Positions 5,718 through 32,233 of a stretch of DNA of 64,000 nt are shown here, piece by piece. Numbering within the stretch: the first letter of the stretch is position 1; each line of letters opens with the position of its first letter. The position numbers and the translations under genes are program-made. The notes beneath the pieces were generated by a model. The model saw only the letters and a program-made list of their open reading frames with translations, searched no databases and was not told the origin of the DNA. Source of the stretch: Terriglobales bacterium (lineage in GTDB: Bacteria; Acidobacteriota; Terriglobia; Terriglobales; SCQP01); assembly GCA_035531375.1 (NCBI GenBank), contig DATKSZ010000149.1, positions 903-64,902 of the forward strand, given 5' to 3'.

Positions 5718-6794
5718 TCAGTCTACCATTCGGCTCGCGGCGGCCGCCGCCAACACCAGCGCGGCGATCTCCTCGGCGGCGCGGGGATGGGCGAAGCCCC
5801 CGACCGCCTGCCGCATGGCCTCGAGCCGCGCCGGGGCGGCGAGCAACTGCTCGATGCGCGCCCCCAGCCCGGCCGGGCTGAGCCTGGCCTGCTCCATCAC
5901 CTCCGCCGCGCCCGCCCGGGCGTAGGCCTGGGCGTTGCGCAACTGGTGCTGGTCGGCGGCGCCGGGGAAGGGAACCAGGATGGCCGGCCGCCGCGCCGCC
6001 GCCAGCTCGCCCAGCGTGCTGGCCCCGGCGCGGCCCACCACCAGCGCCGCCTCCGCCATGGCCGCCGCCATGTCGTCCACAAACGCCACCGCCCGCGCCC
6101 GCCCCCCCAGCCCGGCGTAGGCGGCTTGGCAGGCCCCGAGGTCGGCGGCCCCGGTCTGGTGCAGCAGGCGGAAGGCGACCTGCGGCGCCATCTCCCGCAC
6201 CACTTGATTGAGGGCGTGGGCGCCCTGGCTGCCGCCAGTGACCAATACCAGCGGCGGCCCGGACGCCGCCGCCGCCGCGGCGGCGGCGCGGAAGAACTCC
6301 GGCCGCACCGGAATCCCGGTCACCACCGCCCGCCGGAAGTCGCGCGCGGTCTCGGGAAAATTGACCGCCGCGGTCGCCACCCAGGGCGCCGCCCAGCGGT
6401 TGGCCAGCCCGGTCTTGGCGTTGACCTCGAGCACCACCACCGGCACCCGCAGCAGCGCGGCGGCGGCCAGCACCGGCCCGGAGGCGTAGCCGCCGATGCC
6501 CAGCACCGCCTGCGCCCGCAGCCGCCGCAGCAGCCCGACACTGTGGGCGACCGCCCGCGGCAACTGCGCCAGCGTCGCCAGCCGCCGCCCCGCCCCCCCC
6601 GTCTTCAGCCCCCCGATCCGGATCGTCTCCAGCCGGAAGCCGGCCGCCGGCACCAGCTTCGCCTCCAGCCCCCGCGCCGTGCCCACGAAGGCGGCCGGCT
6701 CCGCCCCCGCCGCGCGCAGCGCCCGCGCCACCGCCAGTCCGGGCATCAGGTGCCCGCCGGTGCCGCCGCCGGCGATGACGATGCGGGCGGCCAT
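5718..6794 (-). CDS. murG: UDP-N-acetylglucosamine--N-acetylmuramyl-(pentapeptide) pyrophosphoryl-undecaprenol GlcNAc transferase
   Basis: MAARIVIAGGGTGGHLMPGLAVA N-terminus, GGYASGP, TGGSQGA motifs. Position in the dcw cluster. Confidence 0.9.
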   Translation of the reverse strand: MAARIVIAGGGTGGHLMPGLAVARALRAAGAEPAAFVGTARGLEAKLVPAAGFRLETIRIGGLKTGGAGRRLATLAQLPRAVAHSVGLLRRLRAQAVLGIGGYASGPVLAAAALLRVPVVVLEVNAKTGLANRWAAPWVATAAVNFPETARDFRRAVVTGIPVRPEFFRAAAAAAAASGPPLVLVTGGSQGAHALNQVVREMAPQVAFRLLHQTGAADLGACQAAYAGLGGRARAVAFVDDMAAAMAEAALVVGRAGASTLGELAAARRPAILVPFPGAADQHQLRNAQAYARAGAAEVMEQARLSPAGLGARIEQLLAAPARLEAMRQAVGGFAHPRAAEEIAALVLAAAAASRMVD

Positions 6795-20938: not shown

Positions 20939-23905
20939 TTACGGCCGCATCCAGATGTCGTCCAACACCTGGACCGAGCTGTTGAGCGTCTGCCCGCCGA
21001 CCGTGACCCGCACCATATAGGTGCCCGGCGCCAGCAGCGGCCCCTGCACCGCGCCGCGGCCGAAGAAGCCGCCACGGCCGCCATTGGCCACGAACGGCAC
21101 CGGCTGCGGGCCGCCGCGCCCGGCGGCGCCGCGCCCGCCGCGTCCGCCGCGGCCGCCGGCGTTCTCCCCGCCGCGCGCCGCCGGCGGCGCCGCGCCGCGC
21201 ATATCCCACTGGAAGCGGTTCATGCCCGCCTTGATGTCCTTCGCCTTCATGCTGCTGACCACCTTGCCCTCCTGCAGGAAGTCAATCGTGGCCGGCCCCA
21301 TGTCCGCCTTGGCCCAGATGCTGATGGCGGTGCCGCCCTGCGGGTTGGCGCCGCGGAAGGCGTTCTGGAAGACCGGGTTCTGCTCCTCGATGTCGTTCCT
21401 CCACTCCACCGCCGGGCGCGGCGTGAACAGGTGCACGTCGGCATCGCCGATCTGGCCCAACTGCTCCAGCGGGGTGATGTCGTCGGCGATCCAGATGGAG
21501 CGCCCGTGGGTGGCCAGGATCAGGTCGCGGTCGCGCGGCTGGATCAGGATGTCGTCCACCGGCACCTCGGGCAGGTCGTTCATGAACTTGTGCCAGCTCT
21601 GGGCGCCGTCGGTGGAGACGAACAGCCCGAACTCGGTGCCCACGAACAGCAGGTTGGGGTTGCGGTCGTCCTCGCGCAGCGCCTGGATCTCGCCCTGGGC
21701 GGGCAGGTTGGCGGTGACGTCGGTCCAGGTCTTGCCGTAGTCGGTGGTCTTGAAGAGGTAGGGGTGGTAGTCGTCGTTGCGGTGGTTGTCGAGGGCGACG
21801 TAGGTGGTGGCGCCGTTGAAGTGCGAGGGCTCGATGCGGTTCACCTGCACGTAGCCCTTGGGCGCGCCCGGCACGCTGGCGTCGAGGTTGGGCATGACGT
21901 TGGTGAAGGTGGCGCCGTCGTCGAGGCTGAGCTGCAGGTTGCCATCGTCGGTGCCCACCCAGATCTCGCCCGGGCGCGAAGGCGACTCGCGCACCTGCGT
22001 CGCCAGCGAGCTGGCGGAGTAGCCGTCGTGCTTCTCCGCCATCGGCAGGTTGCCGGCCACGCCCATGATCGCCATTTGCGGCGACCACCGGTCCACGTTC
22101 TTGGTCAGGTCGGTGGGGTTCATGGTCCAGGTGTCGCCGCGGTTGTCGGACTTGAAGAAGTACTGCGCCGCCATGTAGACCTTGCGCGGGTTGAAGGGCG
22201 AGATCTCAAACGGGGCGTTCCAATAGAAGCGGAACGGCGGCGGGTCGGCGGGCTGGTTGATGATGTTGCCCGGGCCGCCGCGGCCGCCAAAGCCGCCCGC
22301 CGGCGCCGCCGGCGCGGTGGCCCGCGGCCGGATGCTCACCTGCGTGCCCGCGCGCAGGTCGTGCCGCACCATGCCGCCGTCCTGCGACTCGCCGTAGACG
22401 ATGGCGAAGTTGCCCGGGTCCTGCCGCGTGTAGAAGCCGTCCCCGCCCGCCACCGTGTACCAGTCGGTGTTGACGATGCCGTTGGCGTTGCGCACCGCGC
22501 TCGGCCCGCACCAGGCGTTGTTGTCCTGCAGCCCGCCGCAGACGTAGTAGGGGTGGCGCATGTCGCTGGAGACCTGGTAGAACTGCCCCACCGCCATCTT
22601 GTTCTCGTAGGTCCAGCTCATGCCGCCGTCGTGGCTGATGTCCAGCCCGCCGTCGTGGCCGATGGCGACGATGCGCGGGTCCTGGGGATCAATCCAGATG
22701 GCGTGGTAGTCGGTGTGCGAGCCCGTCATCGGCCGCCAGGTCTTGCCCCCGTCCATCGAGATCTGCCCCGGCGTGCCCCCCACGAACAGCTTGTTGGAGT
22801 CCACCGGATCCACCCGGATCTGGCTGAAATAGACCGGGCGCTGGTCCTGGTTGCTCATGAAGGTCCAGGTCTTGCCGGCGTCGGCGGAGCGGAACACGCC
22901 GCTCTTGTTGGGGTCGGGCGGCGGCGCCGCCCCGCGCCCGCGCCCGCCGAAGCCGCCCCGTCCCGGCGGCAGGGGCCCGCCGCTGGCGGCGGTGCCCCCG
23001 CCCACGCCCGCGCTCGCCCCCGCCTCCACCTGCGCATAAACGATGTTGGGGTTGCGCGGGAAGATGGCGATGGCGATGCGCCCGTAGATGCCGTCCTGGG
23101 GCTTCGGCCAGCCCGCCCCGTCCAGCCGCGTCCAACTCGCGCCCGCGTCGGTGGACTTCCACAGCCCGCTGTTGGGCCCGCCCCCGTTGTAGCCCCACCA
23201 GGTGCGGCGGTGCTCGTAGCTGCTGGCGTAGACCACCTTCGGGTTCGCCGGGTCAATCGCCACGTCCTCAAAGCCGGTGTTCTCGTCCAGGTACTTGGCC
23301 TTGATCCAGGTCTTGCCCCCGTCCGTGCTCTTGTAGAGCCCGCGGTCGGGGTTGGGCCCGAACAGGTGCCCCGCCGCCGCCACGTAGACCACGTCCGGGT
23401 TGGTCGGATCCACCGCGATGCGCCCGATGGACTGGGTGTTGGCCAGCCCCAGGTGGGTCCAGGTCTTGCCCCCGTCGCGCGTCCCCCACACCCCGTCGCC
23501 GATGGTCGAGCTCTGCCGGTTGTTGGCCTCGCCCGAGCCCACATACACGATCTCCTTGTTCGAGGGTGCGATCCCAATCGCCCCCACCGACTCGTCCGGC
23601 ATCTGGTCCCAGAGCGAGGTCCAGTGGTTGCCCCCGTCGGTGGACTTCCACAGCCCGCCGGTGGCGAAGCCGATGTACAGGGTCATCGGATCCTGCGGCG
23701 AGCCCTCGATGTCGTCCAGCCGCCCCATCATCGTCGCCGGCCCGATCGAGCGGAAGGTGAACGGCGCCAGCAGCGGGTTGCTGGAGATGTTGATCGGCTT
23801 CGGCGGCGGCTGCTGGGCGCGGCCCTGCGCCAGCGCCAGCCCGCTGCTGGCCAGCAGCAGGGCGGTGGATGCGGCAATGCGGCGGAAGGCGGTGCGGTTC
23901 GGCAT
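20939..23905 (-). CDS. secreted BNR/Asp-box repeat protein (VPS10/sortilin-like beta-propellers)
   Basis: Many SxDxGxTW boxes (STDGGNHW, TRDGGKTW, STDGGKTW, STDAGASW, SADAGKTW, SMDGGKTW, SHDGGMSW, STDGAQSW). Leader MPNRTAFRRIAASTALLLASSGLALA. GGGAG Shine-Dalgarno sequence before the ATG at 23905. Confidence 0.8.
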   Translation of the reverse strand: MPNRTAFRRIAASTALLLASSGLALAQGRAQQPPPKPINISSNPLLAPFTFRSIGPATMMGRLDDIEGSPQDPMTLYIGFATGGLWKSTDGGNHWTSLWDQMPDESVGAIGIAPSNKEIVYVGSGEANNRQSSTIGDGVWGTRDGGKTWTHLGLANTQSIGRIAVDPTNPDVVYVAAAGHLFGPNPDRGLYKSTDGGKTWIKAKYLDENTGFEDVAIDPANPKVVYASSYEHRRTWWGYNGGGPNSGLWKSTDAGASWTRLDGAGWPKPQDGIYGRIAIAIFPRNPNIVYAQVEAGASAGVGGGTAASGGPLPPGRGGFGGRGRGAAPPPDPNKSGVFRSADAGKTWTFMSNQDQRPVYFSQIRVDPVDSNKLFVGGTPGQISMDGGKTWRPMTGSHTDYHAIWIDPQDPRIVAIGHDGGLDISHDGGMSWTYENKMAVGQFYQVSSDMRHPYYVCGGLQDNNAWCGPSAVRNANGIVNTDWYTVAGGDGFYTRQDPGNFAIVYGESQDGGMVRHDLRAGTQVSIRPRATAPAAPAGGFGGRGGPGNIINQPADPPPFRFYWNAPFEISPFNPRKVYMAAQYFFKSDNRGDTWTMNPTDLTKNVDRWSPQMAIMGVAGNLPMAEKHDGYSASSLATQVRESPSRPGEIWVGTDDGNLQLSLDDGATFTNVMPNLDASVPGAPKGYVQVNRIEPSHFNGATTYVALDNHRNDDYHPYLFKTTDYGKTWTDVTANLPAQGEIQALREDDRNPNLLFVGTEFGLFVSTDGAQSWHKFMNDLPEVPVDDILIQPRDRDLILATHGRSIWIADDITPLEQLGQIGDADVHLFTPRPAVEWRNDIEEQNPVFQNAFRGANPQGGTAISIWAKADMGPATIDFLQEGKVVSSMKAKDIKAGMNRFQWDMRGAAPPAARGGENAGGRGGRGGRGAAGRGGPQPVPFVANGGRGGFFGRGAVQGPLLAPGTYMVRVTVGGQTLNSSVQVLDDIWMRP

Positions 23906-24032
23906 GGGGCTCCCTCTCGGGTGAAACAGGGGCAATGTATCACATCTGCGCTGGTTCCCCGGCAGGCATTCTGCAAAATGACGCCCCGGTCAGCCCCTGC
24001 AACTTCCGCCGCCTTGGGGAATCCTACCCACT

Positions 24033-24779
24033 ATGACCGCACCCGCCAAGATCGCGCTCTGGTCGCTGGCGGCGCTGGCCGCGCTGGCGGCCTTGGCCGC
24101 GCTGGTCTCGACCAGCGGCGTCTCCCCCGTCCGCACCCTCGCCCGCCTGCCCGCCGCCCGGCTCGACGAGCCCCGCCCGCTGCATGGCTCCGCGCCCACC
24201 CGGGAATCGGTGGTGCTGGCCGGCGGCTGCTTCTGGGGCATGCAATTGGTCTTCGAGCACGTGCGCGGCGTGGACGCCGTCACCGCGGGCTACGCCGGCG
24301 GCCTGGCCGCGACCGCCCACTACGACAGGGTGAGCACCGGCGCCACCGGCCACGCCGAGTCGGTGCGCATCGTCTACGATCCCGCCCGGGTCTCGCTGGG
24401 CACGCTGCTGCGCGTGTTCTTCTCCGTCGCCCACGACCCCACCGAGCTCGACTACCAGGGCCCCGACCAGGGCACGCAGTACCGCTCCGCCATCTTCTAC
24501 GCCAACCCCGGGCAATACCGCATCGCCCGCGCCTACATCGCCCAACTGCAGCAAGCGCGCGCCTTCCGCCGGCCCGTCGTCACCGGGCTGACGCCGCTCA
24601 CCGCCCAGCGCGGCTTCTATCCGGCCGAGGCGTATCATCAGGACTACGCCGCGCACAATCCGGATGACCTCTACATCCGCATCAACGACCTGCCCAAGCT
24701 CGCCGCCCTGCGCCGCCAGTGGCCCGCCCTCTCGCGGGACGCGCGGCGCAGCCGCGCAGGGGCCCGCGCCCACCATTGA
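24033..24779 (+). CDS. msrA: peptide-methionine (S)-S-oxide reductase
   Basis: GGCFWG active-site motif, GHAESVRIVYDP, YHQDY. N-terminal leader. The last ~15 codons are supplied by a repeat module. Confidence 0.9.
   Translation: MTAPAKIALWSLAALAALAALAALVSTSGVSPVRTLARLPAARLDEPRPLHGSAPTRESVVLAGGCFWGMQLVFEHVRGVDAVTAGYAGGLAATAHYDRVSTGATGHAESVRIVYDPARVSLGTLLRVFFSVAHDPTELDYQGPDQGTQYRSAIFYANPGQYRIARAYIAQLQQARAFRRPVVTGLTPLTAQRGFYPAEAYHQDYAAHNPDDLYIRINDLPKLAALRRQWPALSRDARRSRAGARAHH
24734..24776 (+). repeat. mosaic repeat, tail module only (copy J)
   Basis: GCGGGACGCGCGGCGCAGCCGCGCAGGGGCCCGCGCCCACC equals the 3' module of copies C and F. It lies inside the msrA 3' end. Confidence 0.7.
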
Positions 24780-24798
24780 TCGGTCCCTGAAAATCCTG

Positions 24799-25950
24799 AT
24801 GGTCAGCGACGATCCCGACGACCCCACCGTGGGCGCCGCGATCGTCCCCCGCCAACTGCAGCGGGCGTTCACCGAGCTGGGCCACCGCTGCGACCTGCTC
24901 TTCAGCCACGACCTGGGCGGCTGGCCGGCGAACGAGCGCCTGCGCTTCGCCCTCTCGCCCCGGCTGGCCCAGCGCGCAGTCGAGCGCGCTTGGCGCCGCA
25001 ACGGCCCCTACGACGTGGTGGACGCGGTCGCCGCCGAGGCTTCGCGCCTCGCCCGGGGGCGCGCGCGGATCCCCTGCGCCGTCCTCATCGCCCGCAGCCA
25101 CGGCCTCGAGCACTTCTATTACCGCGAGCTGCTCGCCGACCACCGCGCAGGCCTGCTGCGCAAGCCCTGGTGGCGGCGCGGCTACTACCCGCTGGTGCGC
25201 CTGCGTCCCGCCGCCGCCGGCTTCCGCCGCGCCGACCGCGCCATCCTGCTCAACCGCCGCGAGCGCGCGGAGGCGCTGGCGCGCCACTGGCAGCCCCCGC
25301 AACGCCTCGACCTCATTCCCCACGGCCTCGACGACGCCCGCCTCGCCGCCGCGCCCCCGCCCGACGCCCCCCGCGGCGCCGGCCTGCTCTTCAGCGGCGC
25401 CTGGTACACCGGCAAGGGCAATATCTACCTCGCCCGCGCCCACGCGCTGCTGGTCCAGCGCGGCCTGCCGCTGCCACTCACCCTGCTCGGCCCCGGCATC
25501 GGCCATCCGCCGGCCGAGGTCGAGCGCCACGTCCGCGCCAGCTTCGCCTCCGCCTCCCAGCCCTATCTCACCATCCTGCCCCGCCTCGCCTCGCCCGCCG
25601 CGGTGGACGCGCACTACCGCCGCCACGACCTGCTGGTCTGCCCCTCCACCGCCGAGGGCTTTGGCATGGTGGTGTTCGAGGCGCTCAGCCAGCGCCTGCC
25701 GGTGGTCGCCAGCAGCGCCGTCGGCGCCGCCGACTATCTCCGCCCGGACGAAGATCTCTGCATCGTCCCGCCCCGCGACCCCGAAGCCCTGGCCGGCGCC
25801 ATCGCCCGGCTCTGGCAAGACCCCGAGCGCCGCCGCGCCCTGGCCGAGCACGGCCACCAAACCGTGCGCCCCTACACCTGGCGCCGCGCCGCCCAGCAAA
25901 CCCTGGCCTGCTACGCCGCCGCCCGCGCTGCCCGCCCACAGATCCGCTGA
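24799..25950 (+). CDS. glycosyltransferase family 4/1
   Basis: (LKIL)MVSDD N-terminus. C-terminal CPSTAEGFGMVVFEALSQRLPVVAS EX7E-type motif. The start is uncertain because no ATG precedes LKIL. Confidence 0.75.
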   Translation: MVSDDPDDPTVGAAIVPRQLQRAFTELGHRCDLLFSHDLGGWPANERLRFALSPRLAQRAVERAWRRNGPYDVVDAVAAEASRLARGRARIPCAVLIARSHGLEHFYYRELLADHRAGLLRKPWWRRGYYPLVRLRPAAAGFRRADRAILLNRRERAEALARHWQPPQRLDLIPHGLDDARLAAAPPPDAPRGAGLLFSGAWYTGKGNIYLARAHALLVQRGLPLPLTLLGPGIGHPPAEVERHVRASFASASQPYLTILPRLASPAAVDAHYRRHDLLVCPSTAEGFGMVVFEALSQRLPVVASSAVGAADYLRPDEDLCIVPPRDPEALAGAIARLWQDPERRRALAEHGHQTVRPYTWRRAAQQTLACYAAARAARPQIR

Positions 25951-25956
25951 ACCCCT

Positions 25957-26249
25957 GGCGGGGGCCGCGCCGCTTTGCCTGCTGGCAAAAGCGGCGCGCA
26001 AGGCTGCGTGTAATTCCGCAGGGGCGCGCCAGTGGCGCGTCTGCGCCCCCGGGAAACGAATGCGGCGCGGCCCCAGCAATCCATTAACAAAACCGCGCAG
26101 CGCCGACTTGGGGCCAGGGGCCCCCAAGCCGGCGTGAGCATGCCGCCCCGCGCCGTTACAGCGGGGCGGCTCACAAGCGGGACGCGCGCCGCACCGGCCC
26201 GGCGCTGCTACAGCCGGGCCGGGCAGGCGCGCTGGAGTCCGCGCCCACT
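25957..26249 (+). repeat. mosaic hairpin repeat, copy B (long form)
   Basis: Same module order as copy G, without the H2 hairpin. Confidence 0.9.
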
Positions 26250-26296
26250 AACTTGTAGCAAAGTATGACCTTTCGCCTCCGCCCCGCATTTTTCTC

Positions 26297-26327
26297 TTGA
26301 CACCCGCCGCCCCGGTTCGGTTAGCCT
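26297..26327 (+). promoter_or_regulatory. possible promoter of the RHS locus
   Basis: TTGACA at 26297-26302. Only a weak -10 (TAGCCT, 19-nt spacer). AT-richer context. Confidence 0.3.
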
Positions 26328-26359
26328 GACCGCGCGGTGTGGCTCACAGGGTGACGGCA

Positions 26360-27009
26360 ATGCGGATGGCAAAAGACTTGCTCTCTCTCTCTCTCTCTCT
26401 CTCCTAGTTCTCGCTAGCGCCGCGCAGGCGCAGGTTCTTGCGGCGACGGGCTACATTGCCCGCGGCACAGCCACGGTCATCGGCCCGCGCGGCAGCGAGA
26501 GCGGTGCGATCACGGTCGCGGCCTGGGGCGAGGGCCACTGCAAGGTCACGATCGCCCTGGGGGGGCCGGGGGCGCGGCGCCAGTACACGGCCATCGCCAA
26601 CGGCAACCACGCCAGCATCTCGGCCCCGGCGGGAATGGCGGCGGCGGCGCCGCTGCCGCTCGGCCCGCCCGTCGGCTGTGCGCTGCTGCCGCAGGGGCTG
26701 GCCTACGACAAACTGGCCGCGGGCGGCGCGGCCAGCCTCACTGCGGATCCAGCGACGGGGCGGCCGCTGGCGCTGGTTTGGACGGCCCTTGCGCCCGGCG
26801 GCGGCGAAGCCGCAACGCTGGCCTACGGGAACTACCAGGTTTCCGGAGGGCTGAGCTACCCAGCCACGGTCACCGAGAGCGTGGCTGGCCAGACGCGGCT
26901 TGCCATCCGCTTCACCTCGATTGAAACCCATAGCCTCGCCGAGAGCGACTTCGCGCTGCCGCCGCCGCCGAAGGGCTTTCCCACCCGGACCACGGGAGGT
27001 GGGCTATGA
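26360..27009 (+). CDS. secreted protein gene interrupted by a frame shift in the (CT)11 tract (as sequenced: leader in frame 2, mature part in frame 1; first in-frame ATG only at 26635)
   Basis: See the first finding. Frame 1 is open from 26269 to 27009 with protein-like, high-GC3 translation from 26404. ATGA overlap with the RHS start. Confidence 0.6.
26381..26403 (+). repeat. (CT)11 dinucleotide microsatellite
   Basis: Perfect CTCTCTCTCTCTCTCTCTCTCTC. The only such tract seen in the window. Confidence 0.95.
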
Positions 27010-30000
27010 AGGCGCGGGTACTTGCTGGCCTCTTGCTTCTGGCACTCGCGGCGCTTCCGGCGGCGGCGCAGGTCAACACCTCGGGCTGGGGCAGCTTCCA
27101 GTCGCTGCCCGAGGGCCGCGTGGACCGCGGCGACCTCGACCTGCACCTCGAGTTCCCGATCTTCAATCGGGCCACCGTAGGGCGGGCGCAGGTGAAGGCG
27201 GTGCTGGTCTACGACAGCCAGTTTTGGCAGCCGGTGAACGGCGCCTGGGCGCCCGAGACGGGCGGAGGCTGGTGGCTGCGCACCGCCGCTGGGCATCTGA
27301 GCGAGACGACCACGGTGGACAGCGGTGCCTGCGGCTGGACCGACGGCAGCGGCACCGACGACGGCAGCGGCACCATCACCAACCACGCCTTTGCCTTCAC
27401 CGAGCCCGATGGCACGGTGGCGCCCGCGGGCAGCTACATCTCGGTCTATGCGCCCAACAGGATCCATCCCGAGGGCTACTACAACGACTGCCCGCCCTCG
27501 GACACACTGCCCATCACGACCTTCATCGGCGACGGCAAGGGCTACCGCGTGGTGATTGACAGCTCGGGCGCGGGAACGGCCTGGGACGGCGACGGCGACA
27601 ACCTGACCGACGGCCTCACCGATCCCAACGGCAACTCCGTCACCGTCTCCGCCGGGGCCCTGAACGACCCGCTGGGAACGGCGCTCACCGTCAGCGGCTC
27701 GGGAACCCCCAGCTCGCCCATCGTCTACACCTACACCGGCACGGGCGCCACCCCGGTGAGCGTCACCGAGAACTTCGAGTCGGTGTATGCCACCGGCAGC
27801 TTCGGCTGCTACCCCGGCTGGAGCGGGTACCTGAACCTGCCGGAATCCATCACCTATCCCGACAGCTCCGAGTACGTCTTCAGCTACGACTCGGCCGGCA
27901 GACTGGCCACGCTCACGCTCCCCACGGGCGGGGTGATCAGCTACAGCCAATCGCTTTCGAACAACTGCTCCTACACCACCAGCACCCTCACCCGCTCGGA
28001 GTCGCTGGATTCCGGCAAGGAATGGCTCTGGTGGAATTCCAGCGGCTCCTCCAGCGGGCAGACCACCCAGACCAGTCCGGACAACAACCTTTCCGTCTTT
28101 GACTTCGACGCCACCGGCGCGCTGACCGAGACCGACGCCTACAGCGGGCCGTCGACCGGGACCATAGAGAGCGAGACCACCATCGCCACCGGCTACAGCG
28201 GCGGCACCACCAAGACGGCGGTGACCGAGCTGTTCGGCCCAACTCCGCTCTACTCCCAGCACCAACAGACGTTCGACCCCTTCGACAACCTCACCGCCAG
28301 CAGCGACACCGACTGGGGCACAACCTCGCCTGGGGGCGCCATCCTGCGCCAGACGACGGCGGTCTACGGCACCAGCGGCGAGGCGGAGGTGCTCGCCAGC
28401 CGGACGGTGAGCGACGGCTCCGGCAACGAAGTGTCAAAGTCCACATTCTCCTACGACAGCCACGCCAATCTGCTGAGCGAGAGCGATTACGTCACCGGCA
28501 GCACATACCTCACCAAAAGCTACGCCTACAACAGCAACGGCACGGTGCACACCGCGACCGACGCCAACGGGGGGGTGACCACCTACAGCTACACCTGCGG
28601 CAGCGGGTTTTACCCCAGCAGCGTGCAGAGCGCCATCGCCCCGGTGGCCACCAGCGCCACTTGGGACTGCGCCGGCGGCGTGCAGCTAACCTCCACCGAC
28701 CCCAACGGCCAAACCACCACCACCGCCTACGACGATCCAACGCACATGTGGCGGCCGACCTCGATCACCGCGCCCGACGGCAGCCAGACCACGATCAGCT
28801 ACATCTCGCCCAACCAGGTGGAGCGGGCGCAAACCTACAATTCCGGCCACTCCACCGACGATGTGCTGACCACGCTCGACGCTCTGGGGCGTCCCGTCCT
28901 CAGCCAGCGCCGGCAATCGCCCGTCAGCGGGAGCTTTGATACGGTCGAGACTTGGTACGACGCCATGGACAGGCCGGTCCAGGCGAGCATGCCCTTCACC
29001 TCGACCGCCGGCGTCGGCGGTGGCGCCGCCTTCACCACCACCACCTACGACGAGTTCTCGCGTCCGCTGGTGGTGATCGACGGCGGCGGGGGAAAGGTGA
29101 GCTATGCCTACAGCCAGAACGACACCCTGATCACGGCCGGGCCGGCGCCGAGCGGGGAGAACACCAAGAGCAAGCAGGAGCAGTTCGACGGCTTGGGAAG
29201 GCTGCAGTCGGTGTGCGAGATCAACACGCTGGGGGGCGACGGGCCCTGCGGACAGACGGTGGCGCAGAGCGGGTATCTTACGGTCTATGCCCGCAACGCC
29301 CTGGGCCAAATCACCCAGGTCACCCAGAACGCGCAGACCACGCCCACCCAGACGCGGACTTTCAGCTTTGACCAGCTCGGCCGGCTGACGGCGGAGGCCA
29401 ACCCGGAGAGCGGGACCACCGCCTACACCTTCGACAGCGATGCGACCTGCGGGATCTCGGGAGGCGACTTGGTGAAGCGCGTGGACGCCAACGGCAACAC
29501 CACCTGCTACGCCTACGATTTGCTCCACCGGGTAACGCAGATCCGCTATCCGAGCGGCGATCCGAACCCCACGCCGGACAAGTATTTTGCCTACGACGGC
29601 GCCAGCCTGGACAACACCAGCATGGCCAACGTGGCGGGCAGGCTGGCCGAGGCCTACACCGGCACGCCGACGGCCAAGATCACCGACCTGGGCTTCAGCT
29701 ACCCCAATCCGGGCGCGGACGAAGAGGACGTCTACCAGTCCTCGCCCAACTCCGGCGGCTGGACCATCGCCATCGCCCAGCATTACGCCAACGGCGCGGT
29801 TTCGACGCTGACCTTGCCCACGGGCGTGCCGGCCATCACCTACAGCCTGGACGGCGAGGGCCGCCCGGTCGGCGCCATGGCGGGCACCGCGACGCTGGCG
29901 AAGAACGGCGTCTACTCGCCCGAGGGGCTGACCAGCCTGACCCTGGGCTCCAACGACAGCGACGGCTACCAGTACGACGCCAGTACCGGCCGCATGGAGC

Positions 30001-31631
30001 AGTACCAGTTCACGGTGGGCGGCGCGACCGACACCGGGACGCTCACTTGGAACGCCAACGGCTCGCTGGGGACGCTGGGGATCACCGACAACATCCCGGG
30101 CGCCGACGACACCCAGTCCTGCACCTACACCCACGACGACCTGGGCCGCATTGCCTCGGCGGCATGCACCGGCGGGGACAACTGGAGCCAGACCTTTTCC
30201 TACGATTCGCTGGGCAATGTACTGAAGAGCGGGACGCAATCGTTCCAGCCCAACTATGGGATCAACAACCGCATCTCGACCAACATCAACTTCACGGCCC
30301 ACTACGACAACGACGGCAATTTGCTCGACGACCCGGTGACGCCGGCCACCGGAGTCAACGCCTTCGACGCCGAGGGGCACGCGGTGACACTGGAGGGGAT
30401 CGGGGTGACGTATGACGCGCTGGGAAGGGCGGTGGAGGCGGCGGAGCCGGGCGGGACGATCGAGTTCCTGTATGGCCCGGGCGGGGGTAAACTGGCGGTG
30501 ATGAACGGGCAGACCCTGGCGGCCGCCTACATTCCGCTGCCGGGCGGGGGGACGGCGGTCTATCATGGTGCGACGCTGGCCTACTACCGGCATGCCGATT
30601 GGCTGGGCAGCTCGCGGCTGGCCTCGACCCCCGGCCGGACGCTCTATTCGGCCACCGCCTACGCGCCGTATGGGGAGCCGTACGAGGAGAGCGGGACGAT
30701 CGACCGCAATTTCACCGGCCAGAACCAGGACATCGTCGGCGGCCAGTACGACTTCCTCATGCGGGTGTACAACCCCATCCAAGGCCGTTGGTGGACGCCC
30801 GACCCCGCCGGCCTGGCGGCGGTGGACCCCAATGACCCGCAGAGCTGGAATCGCTACGCCTATGTCGGCGGCACCCCCCTGGAGGCCACCGATCCGCTCG
30901 GGCTGGACCCGTGCCCGCCGGGGAGCAGCGTGCAGTGGTGCTTTAGCGGGAGCTCGGTGCCTGGGCTGGGGCAGCAGAATACGCCGCCGGGCATGGGCAG
31001 CGGCGGCCTCGACCTGCTCATCGCTGCGCTGCAGCAGGAGCTCAGTCTCTTTTGGCCCGGCAGCGCCCAGCCTGCCATTGTCGTGCCCGGCAGCGGGAGT
31101 GGCGAGCCAACTAGCCCTGCGACGACGACTTCAGGAAAGCAAAGCAACACGCCGTGCAGCCACGGGATTGGCGTAGGCGCAATGAGTGGGGGCGCTGCCG
31201 AGGCGGGCGCTGGGGCCGCCGGCGCTGGAGTACAGGGCTCTGTCGGCGGCGGCCTGTTTTTCAACCCGCAAAATGACCTTAGCATTGGCGCGCTGGCCGC
31301 CGGCGGTGCCGTGGCCTATGCCGGGGGCGCTGTCTCCGGGGTGCCGCAGCAATACCCCAAGACTGCTCTTATCCTTGGGGCGTTCGCCGGCGCTGGCGGT
31401 GGCGTCTTCCTCACGAATGCGGGGTCAGTGTCCGAACTCGCGGGTCCATTTCTGACCCTCAGCGCGAATCTTGCGGTTTTTGGAATCAAGGGCAGCCTCC
31501 AGCTTGCCGTTGATCGCCACTGGACGGCCATGGCAACGTTTAGTCTCGGCGCCGGCCCGCCAGGGGCCGATTTTTCCGCATACACGACCGACACCGTGAC
31601 CACGGAGCCAGGGTGCTCCTGGGTGCCGTGA
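27006..31631 (+). CDS. RHS/YD-repeat polymorphic toxin with Sec leader and glycine-rich C-terminal domain
   Basis: GGGAGG Shine-Dalgarno sequence. Leader MKARVLAGLLLLALAALPAAAQ. Numerous YD repeats. RHS core end YNPIQGRWWTPDP..NRYAYVGGTPLEATDPLGL, followed by a 241-aa tail. Confidence 0.9.
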   Translation: MKARVLAGLLLLALAALPAAAQVNTSGWGSFQSLPEGRVDRGDLDLHLEFPIFNRATVGRAQVKAVLVYDSQFWQPVNGAWAPETGGGWWLRTAAGHLSETTTVDSGACGWTDGSGTDDGSGTITNHAFAFTEPDGTVAPAGSYISVYAPNRIHPEGYYNDCPPSDTLPITTFIGDGKGYRVVIDSSGAGTAWDGDGDNLTDGLTDPNGNSVTVSAGALNDPLGTALTVSGSGTPSSPIVYTYTGTGATPVSVTENFESVYATGSFGCYPGWSGYLNLPESITYPDSSEYVFSYDSAGRLATLTLPTGGVISYSQSLSNNCSYTTSTLTRSESLDSGKEWLWWNSSGSSSGQTTQTSPDNNLSVFDFDATGALTETDAYSGPSTGTIESETTIATGYSGGTTKTAVTELFGPTPLYSQHQQTFDPFDNLTASSDTDWGTTSPGGAILRQTTAVYGTSGEAEVLASRTVSDGSGNEVSKSTFSYDSHANLLSESDYVTGSTYLTKSYAYNSNGTVHTATDANGGVTTYSYTCGSGFYPSSVQSAIAPVATSATWDCAGGVQLTSTDPNGQTTTTAYDDPTHMWRPTSITAPDGSQTTISYISPNQVERAQTYNSGHSTDDVLTTLDALGRPVLSQRRQSPVSGSFDTVETWYDAMDRPVQASMPFTSTAGVGGGAAFTTTTYDEFSRPLVVIDGGGGKVSYAYSQNDTLITAGPAPSGENTKSKQEQFDGLGRLQSVCEINTLGGDGPCGQTVAQSGYLTVYARNALGQITQVTQNAQTTPTQTRTFSFDQLGRLTAEANPESGTTAYTFDSDATCGISGGDLVKRVDANGNTTCYAYDLLHRVTQIRYPSGDPNPTPDKYFAYDGASLDNTSMANVAGRLAEAYTGTPTAKITDLGFSYPNPGADEEDVYQSSPNSGGWTIAIAQHYANGAVSTLTLPTGVPAITYSLDGEGRPVGAMAGTATLAKNGVYSPEGLTSLTLGSNDSDGYQYDASTGRMEQYQFTVGGATDTGTLTWNANGSLGTLGITDNIPGADDTQSCTYTHDDLGRIASAACTGGDNWSQTFSYDSLGNVLKSGTQSFQPNYGINNRISTNINFTAHYDNDGNLLDDPVTPATGVNAFDAEGHAVTLEGIGVTYDALGRAVEAAEPGGTIEFLYGPGGGKLAVMNGQTLAAAYIPLPGGGTAVYHGATLAYYRHADWLGSSRLASTPGRTLYSATAYAPYGEPYEESGTIDRNFTGQNQDIVGGQYDFLMRVYNPIQGRWWTPDPAGLAAVDPNDPQSWNRYAYVGGTPLEATDPLGLDPCPPGSSVQWCFSGSSVPGLGQQNTPPGMGSGGLDLLIAALQQELSLFWPGSAQPAIVVPGSGSGEPTSPATTTSGKQSNTPCSHGIGVGAMSGGAAEAGAGAAGAGVQGSVGGGLFFNPQNDLSIGALAAGGAVAYAGGAVSGVPQQYPKTALILGAFAGAGGGVFLTNAGSVSELAGPFLTLSANLAVFGIKGSLQLAVDRHWTAMATFSLGAGPPGADFSAYTTDTVTTEPGCSWVP

Positions 31632-31894
31632 TGACAGGGCTCCCGCAGCAAATGTTTGAGGTTTTCCGGCCGATCGGCGTCCTGTTGGCGTACTCTTTCT
31701 GGCTGCTCGTACTGGCGAGGGCGCCTATTGTCGAGAAGGCGGAGAGATGGATTGAGCGGTCGGGCTTGGGCAGGTGTTCGAACTGGCTGCCGCAGGATTT
31801 CCGGACCGCAACTAGCCGCGGCTGGCGGTGGGTTGCTCTGGTTATCACGATTGGAATTTATGTGTCGCTGGTTTTGGCGCCCTGGGGCCTGTAG
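31631..31894 (+). CDS. small 2-TM membrane protein, candidate cognate immunity
   Basis: ATG shares one nucleotide with the RHS stop (TGATG). Predicted helices IGVLLAYSFWLLVLA and WVALVITIGIYVSLVLAPW. AT-richer sequence. An alternative GTG start lies at 31613. Confidence 0.55.
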   Translation: MTGLPQQMFEVFRPIGVLLAYSFWLLVLARAPIVEKAERWIERSGLGRCSNWLPQDFRTATSRGWRWVALVITIGIYVSLVLAPWGL

Positions 31895-31927: not shown

Positions 31928-32233
31928 ATGACGCGAGTTGACTTGCTTGTAGATGCCGCAATCCCCTTTCTGATCCCGCTGGGGCCGATTTGGATCTGTT
32001 ACGTAATCTTCCGGCTGGTGAATGGAGGGGCGCCCATGGGGCACCGTCAGAGATTCGTTACGGCGGCTTGGGCGTTCTTTTTCTTCGAATTCGGCATATT
32101 GGGCGCGCTTGGCTCCCTTTGGAATATCCAATTTCGAATTTCTATTTCGCTCGTGCTCTGCACCTTGCTGGCCTTGGTGGTCGGGCGCTGGTGGGCGGGG
32201 CGCGGGCAAGCGCGGAATGATTTGGGCGGCTGA
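31928..32233 (+). CDS. small 3-TM membrane protein (second immunity-like ORF)
   Basis: ATG start. Three hydrophobic segments. Same AT-richer patch. Confidence 0.5.
   Translation: MTRVDLLVDAAIPFLIPLGPIWICYVIFRLVNGGAPMGHRQRFVTAAWAFFFFEFGILGALGSLWNIQFRISISLVLCTLLALVVGRWWAGRGQARNDLGG

Follow-up and report, generated by a model that had tools for sequence, protein, structure and literature searches.

In the present study, a 64,000-nucleotide (nt) stretch of DNA from a Terriglobales bacterium (contig DATKSZ010000149.1 of assembly GCA_035531375.1; hereafter the window) was analysed with regard to a CT dinucleotide repeat in a small gene directly upstream of an RHS gene. The small gene would be the first of an operon that encodes a secreted protein with a LolA-like fold, an RHS toxin and small membrane proteins, and the switch proposed here would sit in its signal-peptide coding region. 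The repeat, a perfect (CT)11C tract, begins 21 nt past ATG 26360, inside the coding region and near its 5' end (Table 1). An earlier note on this DNA, made from the letters alone, had reported one perfect tract of 23 nt; its coordinates were borne out, and the tract is the sole one of its kind in the window. No match to (CT)6 was obtained in 100 dinucleotide-preserving shuffles, and no paralog was found elsewhere within the 64 kb.

Reading frames around the tract

Two reading frames meet at the tract. The leader frame, opened by ATG 26360 and also by ATG 26366, reads MRMAKDLLSLSLSLS and is closed by a TAG immediately behind the repeat. The mature frame (201 codons from 26404) is open from 26269 up to its TGA, and its earliest ATG, GTG or TTG is found at 26635. 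From the leader TTG to the first post-tract codon there are 23 nt (2 mod 3). Loss of 2 nt or gain of 1 or 4 nt fuses the two frames into MRMAKDLLSLSLSLLVLASAAQAQ..., and the full leader plus mature protein is predicted with a tract of 21 or 27 nt at this locus. The earlier note had described both frames, with the TAG at 26405 and the lack of a start codon before 26635, had held that a change of -2 or +4 nt would fuse them, and had called the sequenced allele OFF, or N-terminally truncated if read from 26635; translation and the frame arithmetic lead to the same account. The tract codes for the (LS)n hydrophobic (h) region between MRMAKDL and LVLASAAQAQ. The fused product would be a Sec leader with the n-region MRMAK, the h-region LLSLSLSLLVLAS and AQA before the predicted cut, and the natural in-frame homologs agree with this prediction. 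The sequenced 11-unit allele is predicted to be OFF, its leader frame being closed by TAG 26405.

A search of 5.8 billion proteins gave 18 homologs of the small protein, a few of which carry a source name, namely Terriglobales or 'Ca. Sulfopaludibacter' metagenome bins. The best match (P0001) is the 124-amino-acid (aa) call that starts at 26635, and the other homologs align over the whole of 26404-27006. The protein sequence from 26404 to 26635 is conserved in all 18 homologs, with the block GPRGSESGxITVAAWGxxHCK, 5' of 26635, highly conserved, and Met-26635 itself is not conserved. In addition, in-frame leaders of the same MRMA..LLSLSL pattern with a varied (LS)n were found in P0004 (MRMASHLLSLSLVIAAS), P0006, P0010, P0011, P0014 and P0018 (MRMARYLLSLSLSLSLSLLALAS), and at locus L018 (MRMAGGSLSLSLSLSLSLSLLALAS). 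These results show the upstream leader to be the true N-terminus, and the 124-aa open reading frame (ORF) from 26635 to be an N-terminally truncated artefact of the OFF state. The family is mis-annotated in databases, where gene callers give truncated proteins of 124 to ~180 aa.

A separate observation concerns homolog P0013 (JGI 3300056388), the called N-terminus of which (VSGWHSVCSLSLSL.. / VSGWHSVCSLSLSLSLLALDS) resembles the mature-frame reading of a shifted leader (..RMAFRLLSLSL..) from a GTG. By this N-terminus the allele looks OFF, with the mature frame entered at the GTG, and some OFF alleles may still yield a product with a hydrophobic, uncharged pseudo-leader. For the window itself, a non-canonical start in the mature frame 5' of the tract was considered and rejected; besides the absence of ATG, GTG and TTG from 26269 to 26635, no CTG or ATH was seen by eye behind a Shine-Dalgarno sequence.

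Table 1. Positions of the features at the locus (window coordinates)
Feature	Position	Strand	Remarks
Putative promoter, -35-like hexamer TTGACA	26297..26302	+	T-rich stretch before it
Putative promoter, -10-like hexamer TAGCCT	26322..26327	+	19-nt spacer from TTGACA
Shine-Dalgarno-like AGGGTGA	26348..26354	+	5 nt before ATG 26360; conserved
Leader reading frame, sequenced allele, predicted OFF	26360..26407	+	MRMAKDLLSLSLSLS then TAG, by translation
(CT)11C simple-sequence repeat	26381..26403	+	putative mutable element; codes (LS)n core of signal peptide
Double out-of-frame stop trap	26405..26417	+	TAG 26405-26407 and TAG 26415-26417, within CTA GTT CTC GCT AGC (= LVLAS)
Signal-peptide end (LVLASAAQAQ) and mature domain	26404..27009	+	to stop TGA 27007-27009; 18 homologs at 37-65% identity across the whole region
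124-aa ORF as given by gene callers (P0001-type)	26635..27009	+	Met-26635 not conserved in homologs
Junction GGAGGTGGGCTATGA	26995..27009	+	RHS Shine-Dalgarno GGAGG in the Gly-Gly tail of the small gene, with ATGA stop/start overlap
RHS/YD-repeat protein, 1541 aa	27006..31631	+	Pfam RHS_repeat, E = 9e-25, 3 stretches
Small hydrophobic protein, candidate immunity gene	31631..31894	+	ATG overlaps RHS stop (TGATG); no Pfam match; putative function
Second small hydrophobic protein, 101 aa, candidate immunity or orphan gene	31928..32233	+	putative function

Tract length among related loci

We compared 30 loci and grouped them by ortholog as A to J (Table 2). One of them (L014) matches the window at 100% over 6.2 kb and is probably its own contig. 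A profile search with a 7-sequence alignment gave nothing in genome contigs and only 4 loci in metagenome contigs, and a DNA pattern search for leader plus tract found a single GTDB representative genome, the locus of which (L029) is identical to L004.

Tract lengths among the relatives were 10, 15, 19, 23, 27(+2), 29, 31, 33 and 37 nt. The window and L012 are 99.07% identical over 3557 nt, with 25 mismatches, and the single gap between them is the tract (23 against 31 nt). Within group C, identical 40-nt flanks enclose tracts of 15 nt (L030), 19 nt (L001/L017) and 29 nt (L002), and two of these loci, L017 and L002, come from one shared metagenome, Ga0307372. Furthermore, the paralog on the 2.06-Mb contig of a metagenome-assembled genome has 29 nt, against 33 nt in a related population (L009-L011). 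Ten distinct alleles have a perfect or nearly perfect tract; three of them are ON (15, 33 and 37 nt) and seven OFF (10, 19, 23, 29, 29, 29 and 31 nt), and the alleles with a degenerate or absent tract are all in frame and stable. Pure tracts vary in length and are mostly out of frame, in keeping with the one-third of ON alleles that free drift in length would give, and impure tracts are stable. Slipped-strand mutability, growing with the count of uninterrupted units, should produce this pattern.

Table 2. Tract length and predicted state in the ortholog groups
Group	Leader	Tract	State	Loci and remarks
A (window locus)	MRMAKDLL	23 nt	OFF	window, L013, L014, L015
A	MRMAKDLL	31 nt	OFF	L012
B (paralog on 2.06-Mb contig of L012)	MRMARYLL	CA+27 = 29 nt	OFF	L005-L008; directly 5' of RHS gene
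B	MRMARYLL	33 nt	ON	L009-L011; gene cut by IS66 element
C	MRMASHLL	15 nt	ON	L030
C	MRMASHLL	19 nt	OFF	L001, L017
C	MRMASHLL	29 nt	OFF	L002; deletion across RHS junction
D	MRTAGYLL	10 nt	OFF	L016
E	MRMAGG	37 nt	ON	L018
F	MRTATNLL	17+A+10+T = 29 nt	OFF	L004 (= L029)
G, H, I, J	various	CT-rich segment degenerate, or none	all ON	group I identical in 7 assemblies

A further possibility would be an error of sequencing or assembly in the tract length, the real gene being in frame, or a mis-annotation, the real gene being the 124-aa ORF and the upstream frame open by chance in GC-rich DNA. Dinucleotide repeats are error-prone in some sequencing chemistries, the 31-nt allele lies on the 2.06-Mb contig, which has a long-read-style name (contig_6581), and the 124-aa ORF is what gene callers report. 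However, the identical 23-nt tract was recovered in at least four independent short-read assemblies from two pipelines (MEGAHIT-style ENA contigs and JGI contigs), L013, L014 and L015 among them, and this recurrence argues that the tract is not an assembly artefact. At the paralog tract the long-read-style contig and three short-read assemblies are identical, the allele differences of 4-10 nt are too large for stutter, and the sequence 5' of 26635 is a conserved protein with a confident predicted fold in which Met-26635 is not kept. We consider an artefact or a mis-annotation of this kind extremely improbable. Overall, the comparison with the relatives supports the phase switch that the earlier note had proposed: of the three findings it had named as contrary, namely an invariant tract length, orthologs that begin at the equivalent of 26635 and an assembly artefact, none was obtained.

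The start of the leader is shared among the relatives as well. The sequence ATGCG(G/A/C)A(T/C)GGC is common to groups A-F, and ATG 26360 is the conserved start, since groups D and F have ACG in place of the second ATG. The leader ATG is preceded in all loci by GGGTGA, GGAGTGA or GAGGTGA. The fold of the leader RNA is weaker than that of shuffled sequence (z = +2.18), which is what a real, accessible initiation site should show. An upstream GCATTTTNNGCTTGACA element is conserved in all loci, and the motif GCATTTTNNGCTTGAC(A/T) is kept, by eye, at the same distance 5' of the leader ATG in 13 of 13 representative loci. A consensus promoter and terminator scan of 25900-27100 returned no site, and an Rfam scan of 25800-27100 nothing above noise. 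The idea that the CU tract might pair with a Shine-Dalgarno sequence, its own or that of RHS, was dropped as unsupported, the leader being less structured than shuffles and the junction fold no better than shuffles.

Selection on the gene and the stops behind the tract

The ratio of non-synonymous to synonymous substitution rates (dN/dS) was determined for the mature domain by the Nei-Gojobori method. It was 0.24 for L001-L016 (synonymous rate, dS, 0.81), 0.42 for window-L001 and 0.47 for window-L016, with both alleles OFF in each of these three pairs, and 0.33-0.34 for window-L012, in which 7 synonymous and 6 non-synonymous changes were counted (P = 0.047 against neutrality). In addition, the mature ORF is intact in six OFF lineages. 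These ratios demonstrate long-term purifying selection on the mature domain, and the gene has evidently been kept functional despite OFF alleles. Since irreversible loss in the six OFF lineages would need recent, independent and simultaneous events, reversible switching is the more economical explanation.

Further evidence comes from the sequence just past the tract. In the window it reads C-TAG-TTCTCGC-TAG-C, so that the two wrong frames stop after 0 and 3 codons. Of 12 representative loci, 11 have both wrong frames closed 0-4 codons past the tract. At other positions of these 11 genes, a median of 53-400 codons has to be read before both are stopped, and only 0-1.4% of those positions do as well. 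This double stop trap is shared at the same position by L001, L003, L004, L005, L012, L016-L019 and L022. It is kept in relatives with a degenerate tract (L003, L019 and L022) and has disappeared from L020, a stable ON lineage. NTA (Leu/Val) and GCT-AGC (Ala-Ser) codons, uncommon choices at 70% GC, supply the stops. We read the trap as a mark of selection for immediate termination after a frameshift. Its likely benefit is that no aberrant peptides are exported behind a working signal sequence, or that operon polarity is maximal. Stops kept in both wrong frames behind a repeat may also serve as a signature in scans of high-GC genomes for real switches. As an observation apart, conservation of the hexamer GCTAGC extends to the DNA sequence itself, also where a relative has no pure tract.

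A different account is given by non-adaptive repeat instability, under which CT-rich Leu/Ser codons would have expanded in some lineages and the OFF alleles would be effectively permanent knock-outs on the way to gene loss. Seven OFF among ten long-tract alleles is the proportion expected without selection for ON. Lineages with an interrupted tract are all ON and stable, as if selection favoured removal of the repeat, and in many family members the leader is ordinary and has no more of the repeat than an LLSLSL proto-repeat. Real decay was also found at long-tract loci: in L002, the 3' end of the LolA-like gene and the 5' end of the RHS gene are lost in a 334-nt deletion (~6404-6410), and in L009-L011 an IS66-family element (TnpB_IS66; 6384-7750 in L009) cuts the paralog after ~110 codons. 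Between L001 and L017 there are 0 synonymous and 4 non-synonymous changes. These cases show that real gene loss also happens. On the other side, with intact mature ORFs and dN/dS of 0.24-0.47 at dS up to ~1, the inactivations would all need to be recent and independent. The 23- and 31-nt OFF alleles are in different wrong frames, so that the tract continued to change in length even if a first knock-out had occurred. Long pure tracts persist in at least six groups, among which protein identity has fallen to 40-65%, and one genome has them in both of its paralogs. Without selection under recurrent frameshifts, the conserved double stop trap would be difficult to account for. We regard decay as an unlikely explanation of the locus.

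It might also be asked whether the OFF alleles are silent. If RNA polymerase slipped by one CU unit, or ribosomes shifted by 2 nt, these alleles would be leaky and ON at a low level. To judge from the sequence, a 2-nt shift in (CU)n would restore perfect tRNA pairing in the P-site and A-site. As indirect support, OFF alleles predominate, yet the gene is under purifying selection; each OFF length is exactly one CT unit off an ON length, and the repeat (23-37 nt) exceeds the length of the RNA-DNA hybrid. Against such a bypass, we know of no efficient elongation slippage on bacterial dinucleotide repeats, although no literature search was made on this point. The leader region has no stimulatory structure and is less structured than shuffles, the conserved stops in both wrong frames look designed to end translation, and a constitutive bypass would not need length polymorphism. 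Recoding is in our view highly unlikely.

Overall, we favour, with a probability of about 0.68, that the (CT)n tract is a slipped-strand ON/OFF translational switch of the LolA-like gene and that the sequenced state is OFF. Replication slippage would add or remove CT units, and only lengths of 0 mod 3 would join MRMAKDL(LS)n to LVLASAAQAQ and the mature domain; at the window locus these would be 21, 27 and 33 nt, or 10, 13 and 16 units. In the 11-unit allele, ribosomes from ATG 26360 would end at TAG 26405 and no protein would be exported. The ON state would be regained by one unit less or two more, and the two stops just past the tract would shut both wrong frames together. Switching would be frequent and reversible within a clone, and the heterogeneity of ON and OFF cells would be adaptive.

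Several results weigh against this switch. The deletion in L002, the insertion in L009-L011 and the pair L001-L017 belong here, and the preponderance of OFF among the long-tract alleles is what neutral decay would also give. In the window's ortholog group no ON allele was present among the loci found, the 23-nt and 31-nt alleles both being OFF, and no full-length protein of this group occurs among the 5.8 billion proteins. Every assembly that holds the window's exact allele gives a consensus of 23 nt with a cassette 100% identical, and these assemblies count as one allele, not as independent strains. Furthermore, the RHS gene has its own strong, conserved GGAGG Shine-Dalgarno sequence and need not depend on the upstream gene, and a local hairpin that covers this GGAGG at the junction had no statistical support (z = 0.29 against shuffles).

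The stop of the small gene in an ATGA overlap with the RHS start, which had been noted earlier, was confirmed, and the GG(A/G)GG-N6-ATGA junction is conserved in 12 of 12 loci. This conservation explains the invariant C-terminal GG(A/G)(Q/L) of the small-protein family. As to whether the tract also gates the RHS gene, the overlap and the early termination argue for some coupling or polarity, and the RHS gene's own Shine-Dalgarno sequence argues for independence. Early termination would lower RHS expression through lost translational coupling or Rho polarity. A wider and only tentative proposal, which we hold to be doubtful, is that the tract and the double stop trap together form an operon-level bet-hedging switch for interbacterial antagonism in soil Acidobacteriota, in which the toxin is silenced too and the LolA-like partner is obligatory. 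Under this proposal, the OFF ribosome would halt 15 codons in and leave ~600 nt of RNA untranslated. The lost ATGA coupling, and possibly Rho polarity, would silence the Sec-exported RHS toxin, and the LolA-like protein would act in the periplasm as a chaperone or export factor, indispensable to an RHS class independent of the type VI secretion system. If this were true, a clonal population would always hold toxin-armed and unarmed cells.

The encoded proteins, related systems and neighbouring DNA

An AlphaFold model of the small protein (201 residues from 26404; 17 aligned sequences) is all-beta, with a predicted local distance difference test score (pLDDT) of 88 and a predicted template-modelling score (pTM) of 0.82; the pLDDT is 83-96 over residues 11-190. 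In a Foldseek search against the PDB, the top 12 matches were LolB, LolA and LolA-superfamily proteins (E 2e-5 to 3e-4, template-modelling score 0.40-0.51, identity 10-16%), and no Pfam family, the LolA and LolB models included, was matched at E <= 0.01. The small protein is, by its model, LolA-like in fold only. It shares with the superfamily (PDB 1iwm, 3bk5, 3buu, 9tp6) a predicted open antiparallel beta-sheet barrel with short helices, a size of ~190 aa and a putative periplasmic location. Unlike these proteins, it has no lipobox and its low identity (9-17%, at a template-modelling score of 0.45-0.51) and lack of a Pfam match set it apart, and in the genome it is partnered by an RHS toxin instead of the Lol pathway; the likeness does not imply that it carries lipoproteins. 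It may be a functional periplasmic partner of the RHS protein. The family is small, with 58 cluster representatives at E <= 1e-10 among 1.84 billion, and the LLSLSL or LLSLCLSL proto-repeat seen in the ordinary leaders of many members is likely the seed of the tract.

A homologous RHS gene comes next in every locus with downstream DNA. The window's RHS protein has its own Sec signal peptide, MKARVLAGLLLLALAALPAAAQ, as read from the sequence, and TEN_YD-shell is on record for the same product. Its C-terminal domain (window 30900-31631), rich in glycine and hydrophobic (GVGAMSGGAAEAGAGAAGAG...GGLFF), may point to a membrane-active toxin; no Pfam match was obtained for the C-terminal 243 aa. Over the two small hydrophobic ORFs that follow, local GC falls to 0.58-0.63, and the 101-aa protein has a weak DUF3397 match (E = 0.0098) below the Pfam cut-off. 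Between the window and L012, the LolA-like gene (26404-27006) is 2.2% divergent (13 changes in 603 nt) and the first 2.8 kb of the RHS gene (27006-29798) 0.36% (10 changes), six-fold below the LolA-like gene. Possible causes of this gap are relaxed constraint, diversifying selection or recombination.

This kind of switch is already known. In Helicobacter pylori, oipA/hopH, sabA and babA carry CT repeats in the 5' signal-peptide coding region that vary by slipped-strand mispairing, and 29 CT patterns with 386 ON and 150 OFF cases have been recorded among clinical isolates (PMC10564699). The oipA-type switch and the Terriglobales locus have in common the CT unit, its position within the signal-peptide coding region just past the start codon and the setting of ON and OFF by unit number. 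In both, natural populations hold many tract patterns with ON and OFF alleles, and the ON frame can be recognised by a conserved motif with which the signal peptide ends (FWLHA in H. pylori, L(V/A)LAS-A in Terriglobales). They differ in that the window comes from a free-living soil Acidobacteriota of ~70% GC, whereas H. pylori is an AT-rich, host-adapted pathogen, and in that the gene encodes a soluble periplasmic or secreted LolA-like protein heading an RHS operon, not an adhesin or outer-membrane protein. In the GC-rich DNA of the window, out-of-frame stops need selection to persist, and do persist. Switching rates have been measured for H. pylori.

In the opa genes of Neisseria, CTCTT pentamer repeats were reportedly found in the leader-peptide coding region by Stern et al. 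in 1986. There too, the signal peptide has its hydrophobic core encoded by a pyrimidine-rich repeat, the frame depends on repeat number and several paralogs in one genome each have their own tract; unlike the window locus, the unit is a pentamer, the genes specify surface adhesins in an obligate human pathogen and no downstream toxin gene is known. A likeness of another sort is offered by the mafA-mafB-mafI modules of Neisseria, in which the gene of the lipoprotein MafA lies directly 5' of a polymorphic toxin with a Sec signal peptide and of its immunity gene, and deletion of mafA left MafB secretion running (PMC4287609). No repeat switch is attributed to mafA in 12 of the 18 passages matched by a term search of that paper, and 'slipped-strand' occurs in it once, in the reference list, in connection with a siaD capsule paper (PMC4287609). 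Both systems have a small exported protein of unassigned role encoded directly 5' of a Sec-type toxin operon; unlike the window proteins, MafA is unrelated in sequence to the small protein and MafB is without RHS repeats.

New here are the taxon and the cargo, namely a free-living, high-GC soil Acidobacteriota host and a putative LolA-like partner that heads a Sec-type RHS operon, and also a stop trap that appears to be selected. Work on repeat-driven phase variation has been confined almost entirely to host-adapted pathogens, and a 2025 review named soil and ocean bacteria as a knowledge gap in the field (PMC11868660). No paper on phase variation through repeats, either in Acidobacteria or at RHS loci, came up in our literature search, in line with the earlier note, the author of which knew of no such switch at an RHS locus in a high-GC environmental lineage; nothing relevant on LolA-like partners of RHS proteins was found either. 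The locus offers a concrete and testable case in an abundant, hard-to-culture soil phylum of ~70% GC, with natural ON and OFF alleles, two paralogs in one genome and degenerate 'locked-ON' relatives as built-in controls. It also points to a conserved, unannotated LolA-like gene as a candidate partner for a class of Sec-exported RHS toxins.

Some minor observations concern the DNA upstream of the small gene. A second conserved upstream element, TTGTAGCAA / TTGTGACAA, sometimes in two copies, lies ~30-50 nt 5' of the -35-like TTGACA in several ortholog groups; it was found at 26240-26275 in the window (cttgtagcaaagtatgacc), at ~5820-5845 in L004, at ~2912-2930 in L022 and in the upstream regions of L012 and L009. 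It may be an operator for a transcription factor, in which case the operon would also be transcriptionally regulated. Just 5' of the putative promoter, the window has a 296-nt GC-rich intergenic segment (25956-26251) with several inverted repeats, and in the 99%-identical L012 an unrelated 101 nt (2509-2609) stands in its place. The L013 cassette is identical to the window from 25958 onward, and the DNA upstream of 2321 in L013 holds enolase, phosphoglycerate mutase and chlorite dismutase-like genes; the window cassette lies behind a glycosyltransferase. The different upstream genes in L013 and the swapped segment in L012 indicate that the cassette of LolA-like and RHS genes has moved or been rearranged. 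A 1078-aa ORF without a Pfam match (21431-24667, + strand) overlaps a 988-aa Sortilin-Vps10/BNR gene called on the - strand of the same contig, and is probably a shadow ORF of GC-rich DNA. Directly 5' of the module, at 24664-25950 (+ strand), lies a family-4 glycosyltransferase that also matches the Pfam model 'GT4 in conflict systems'.

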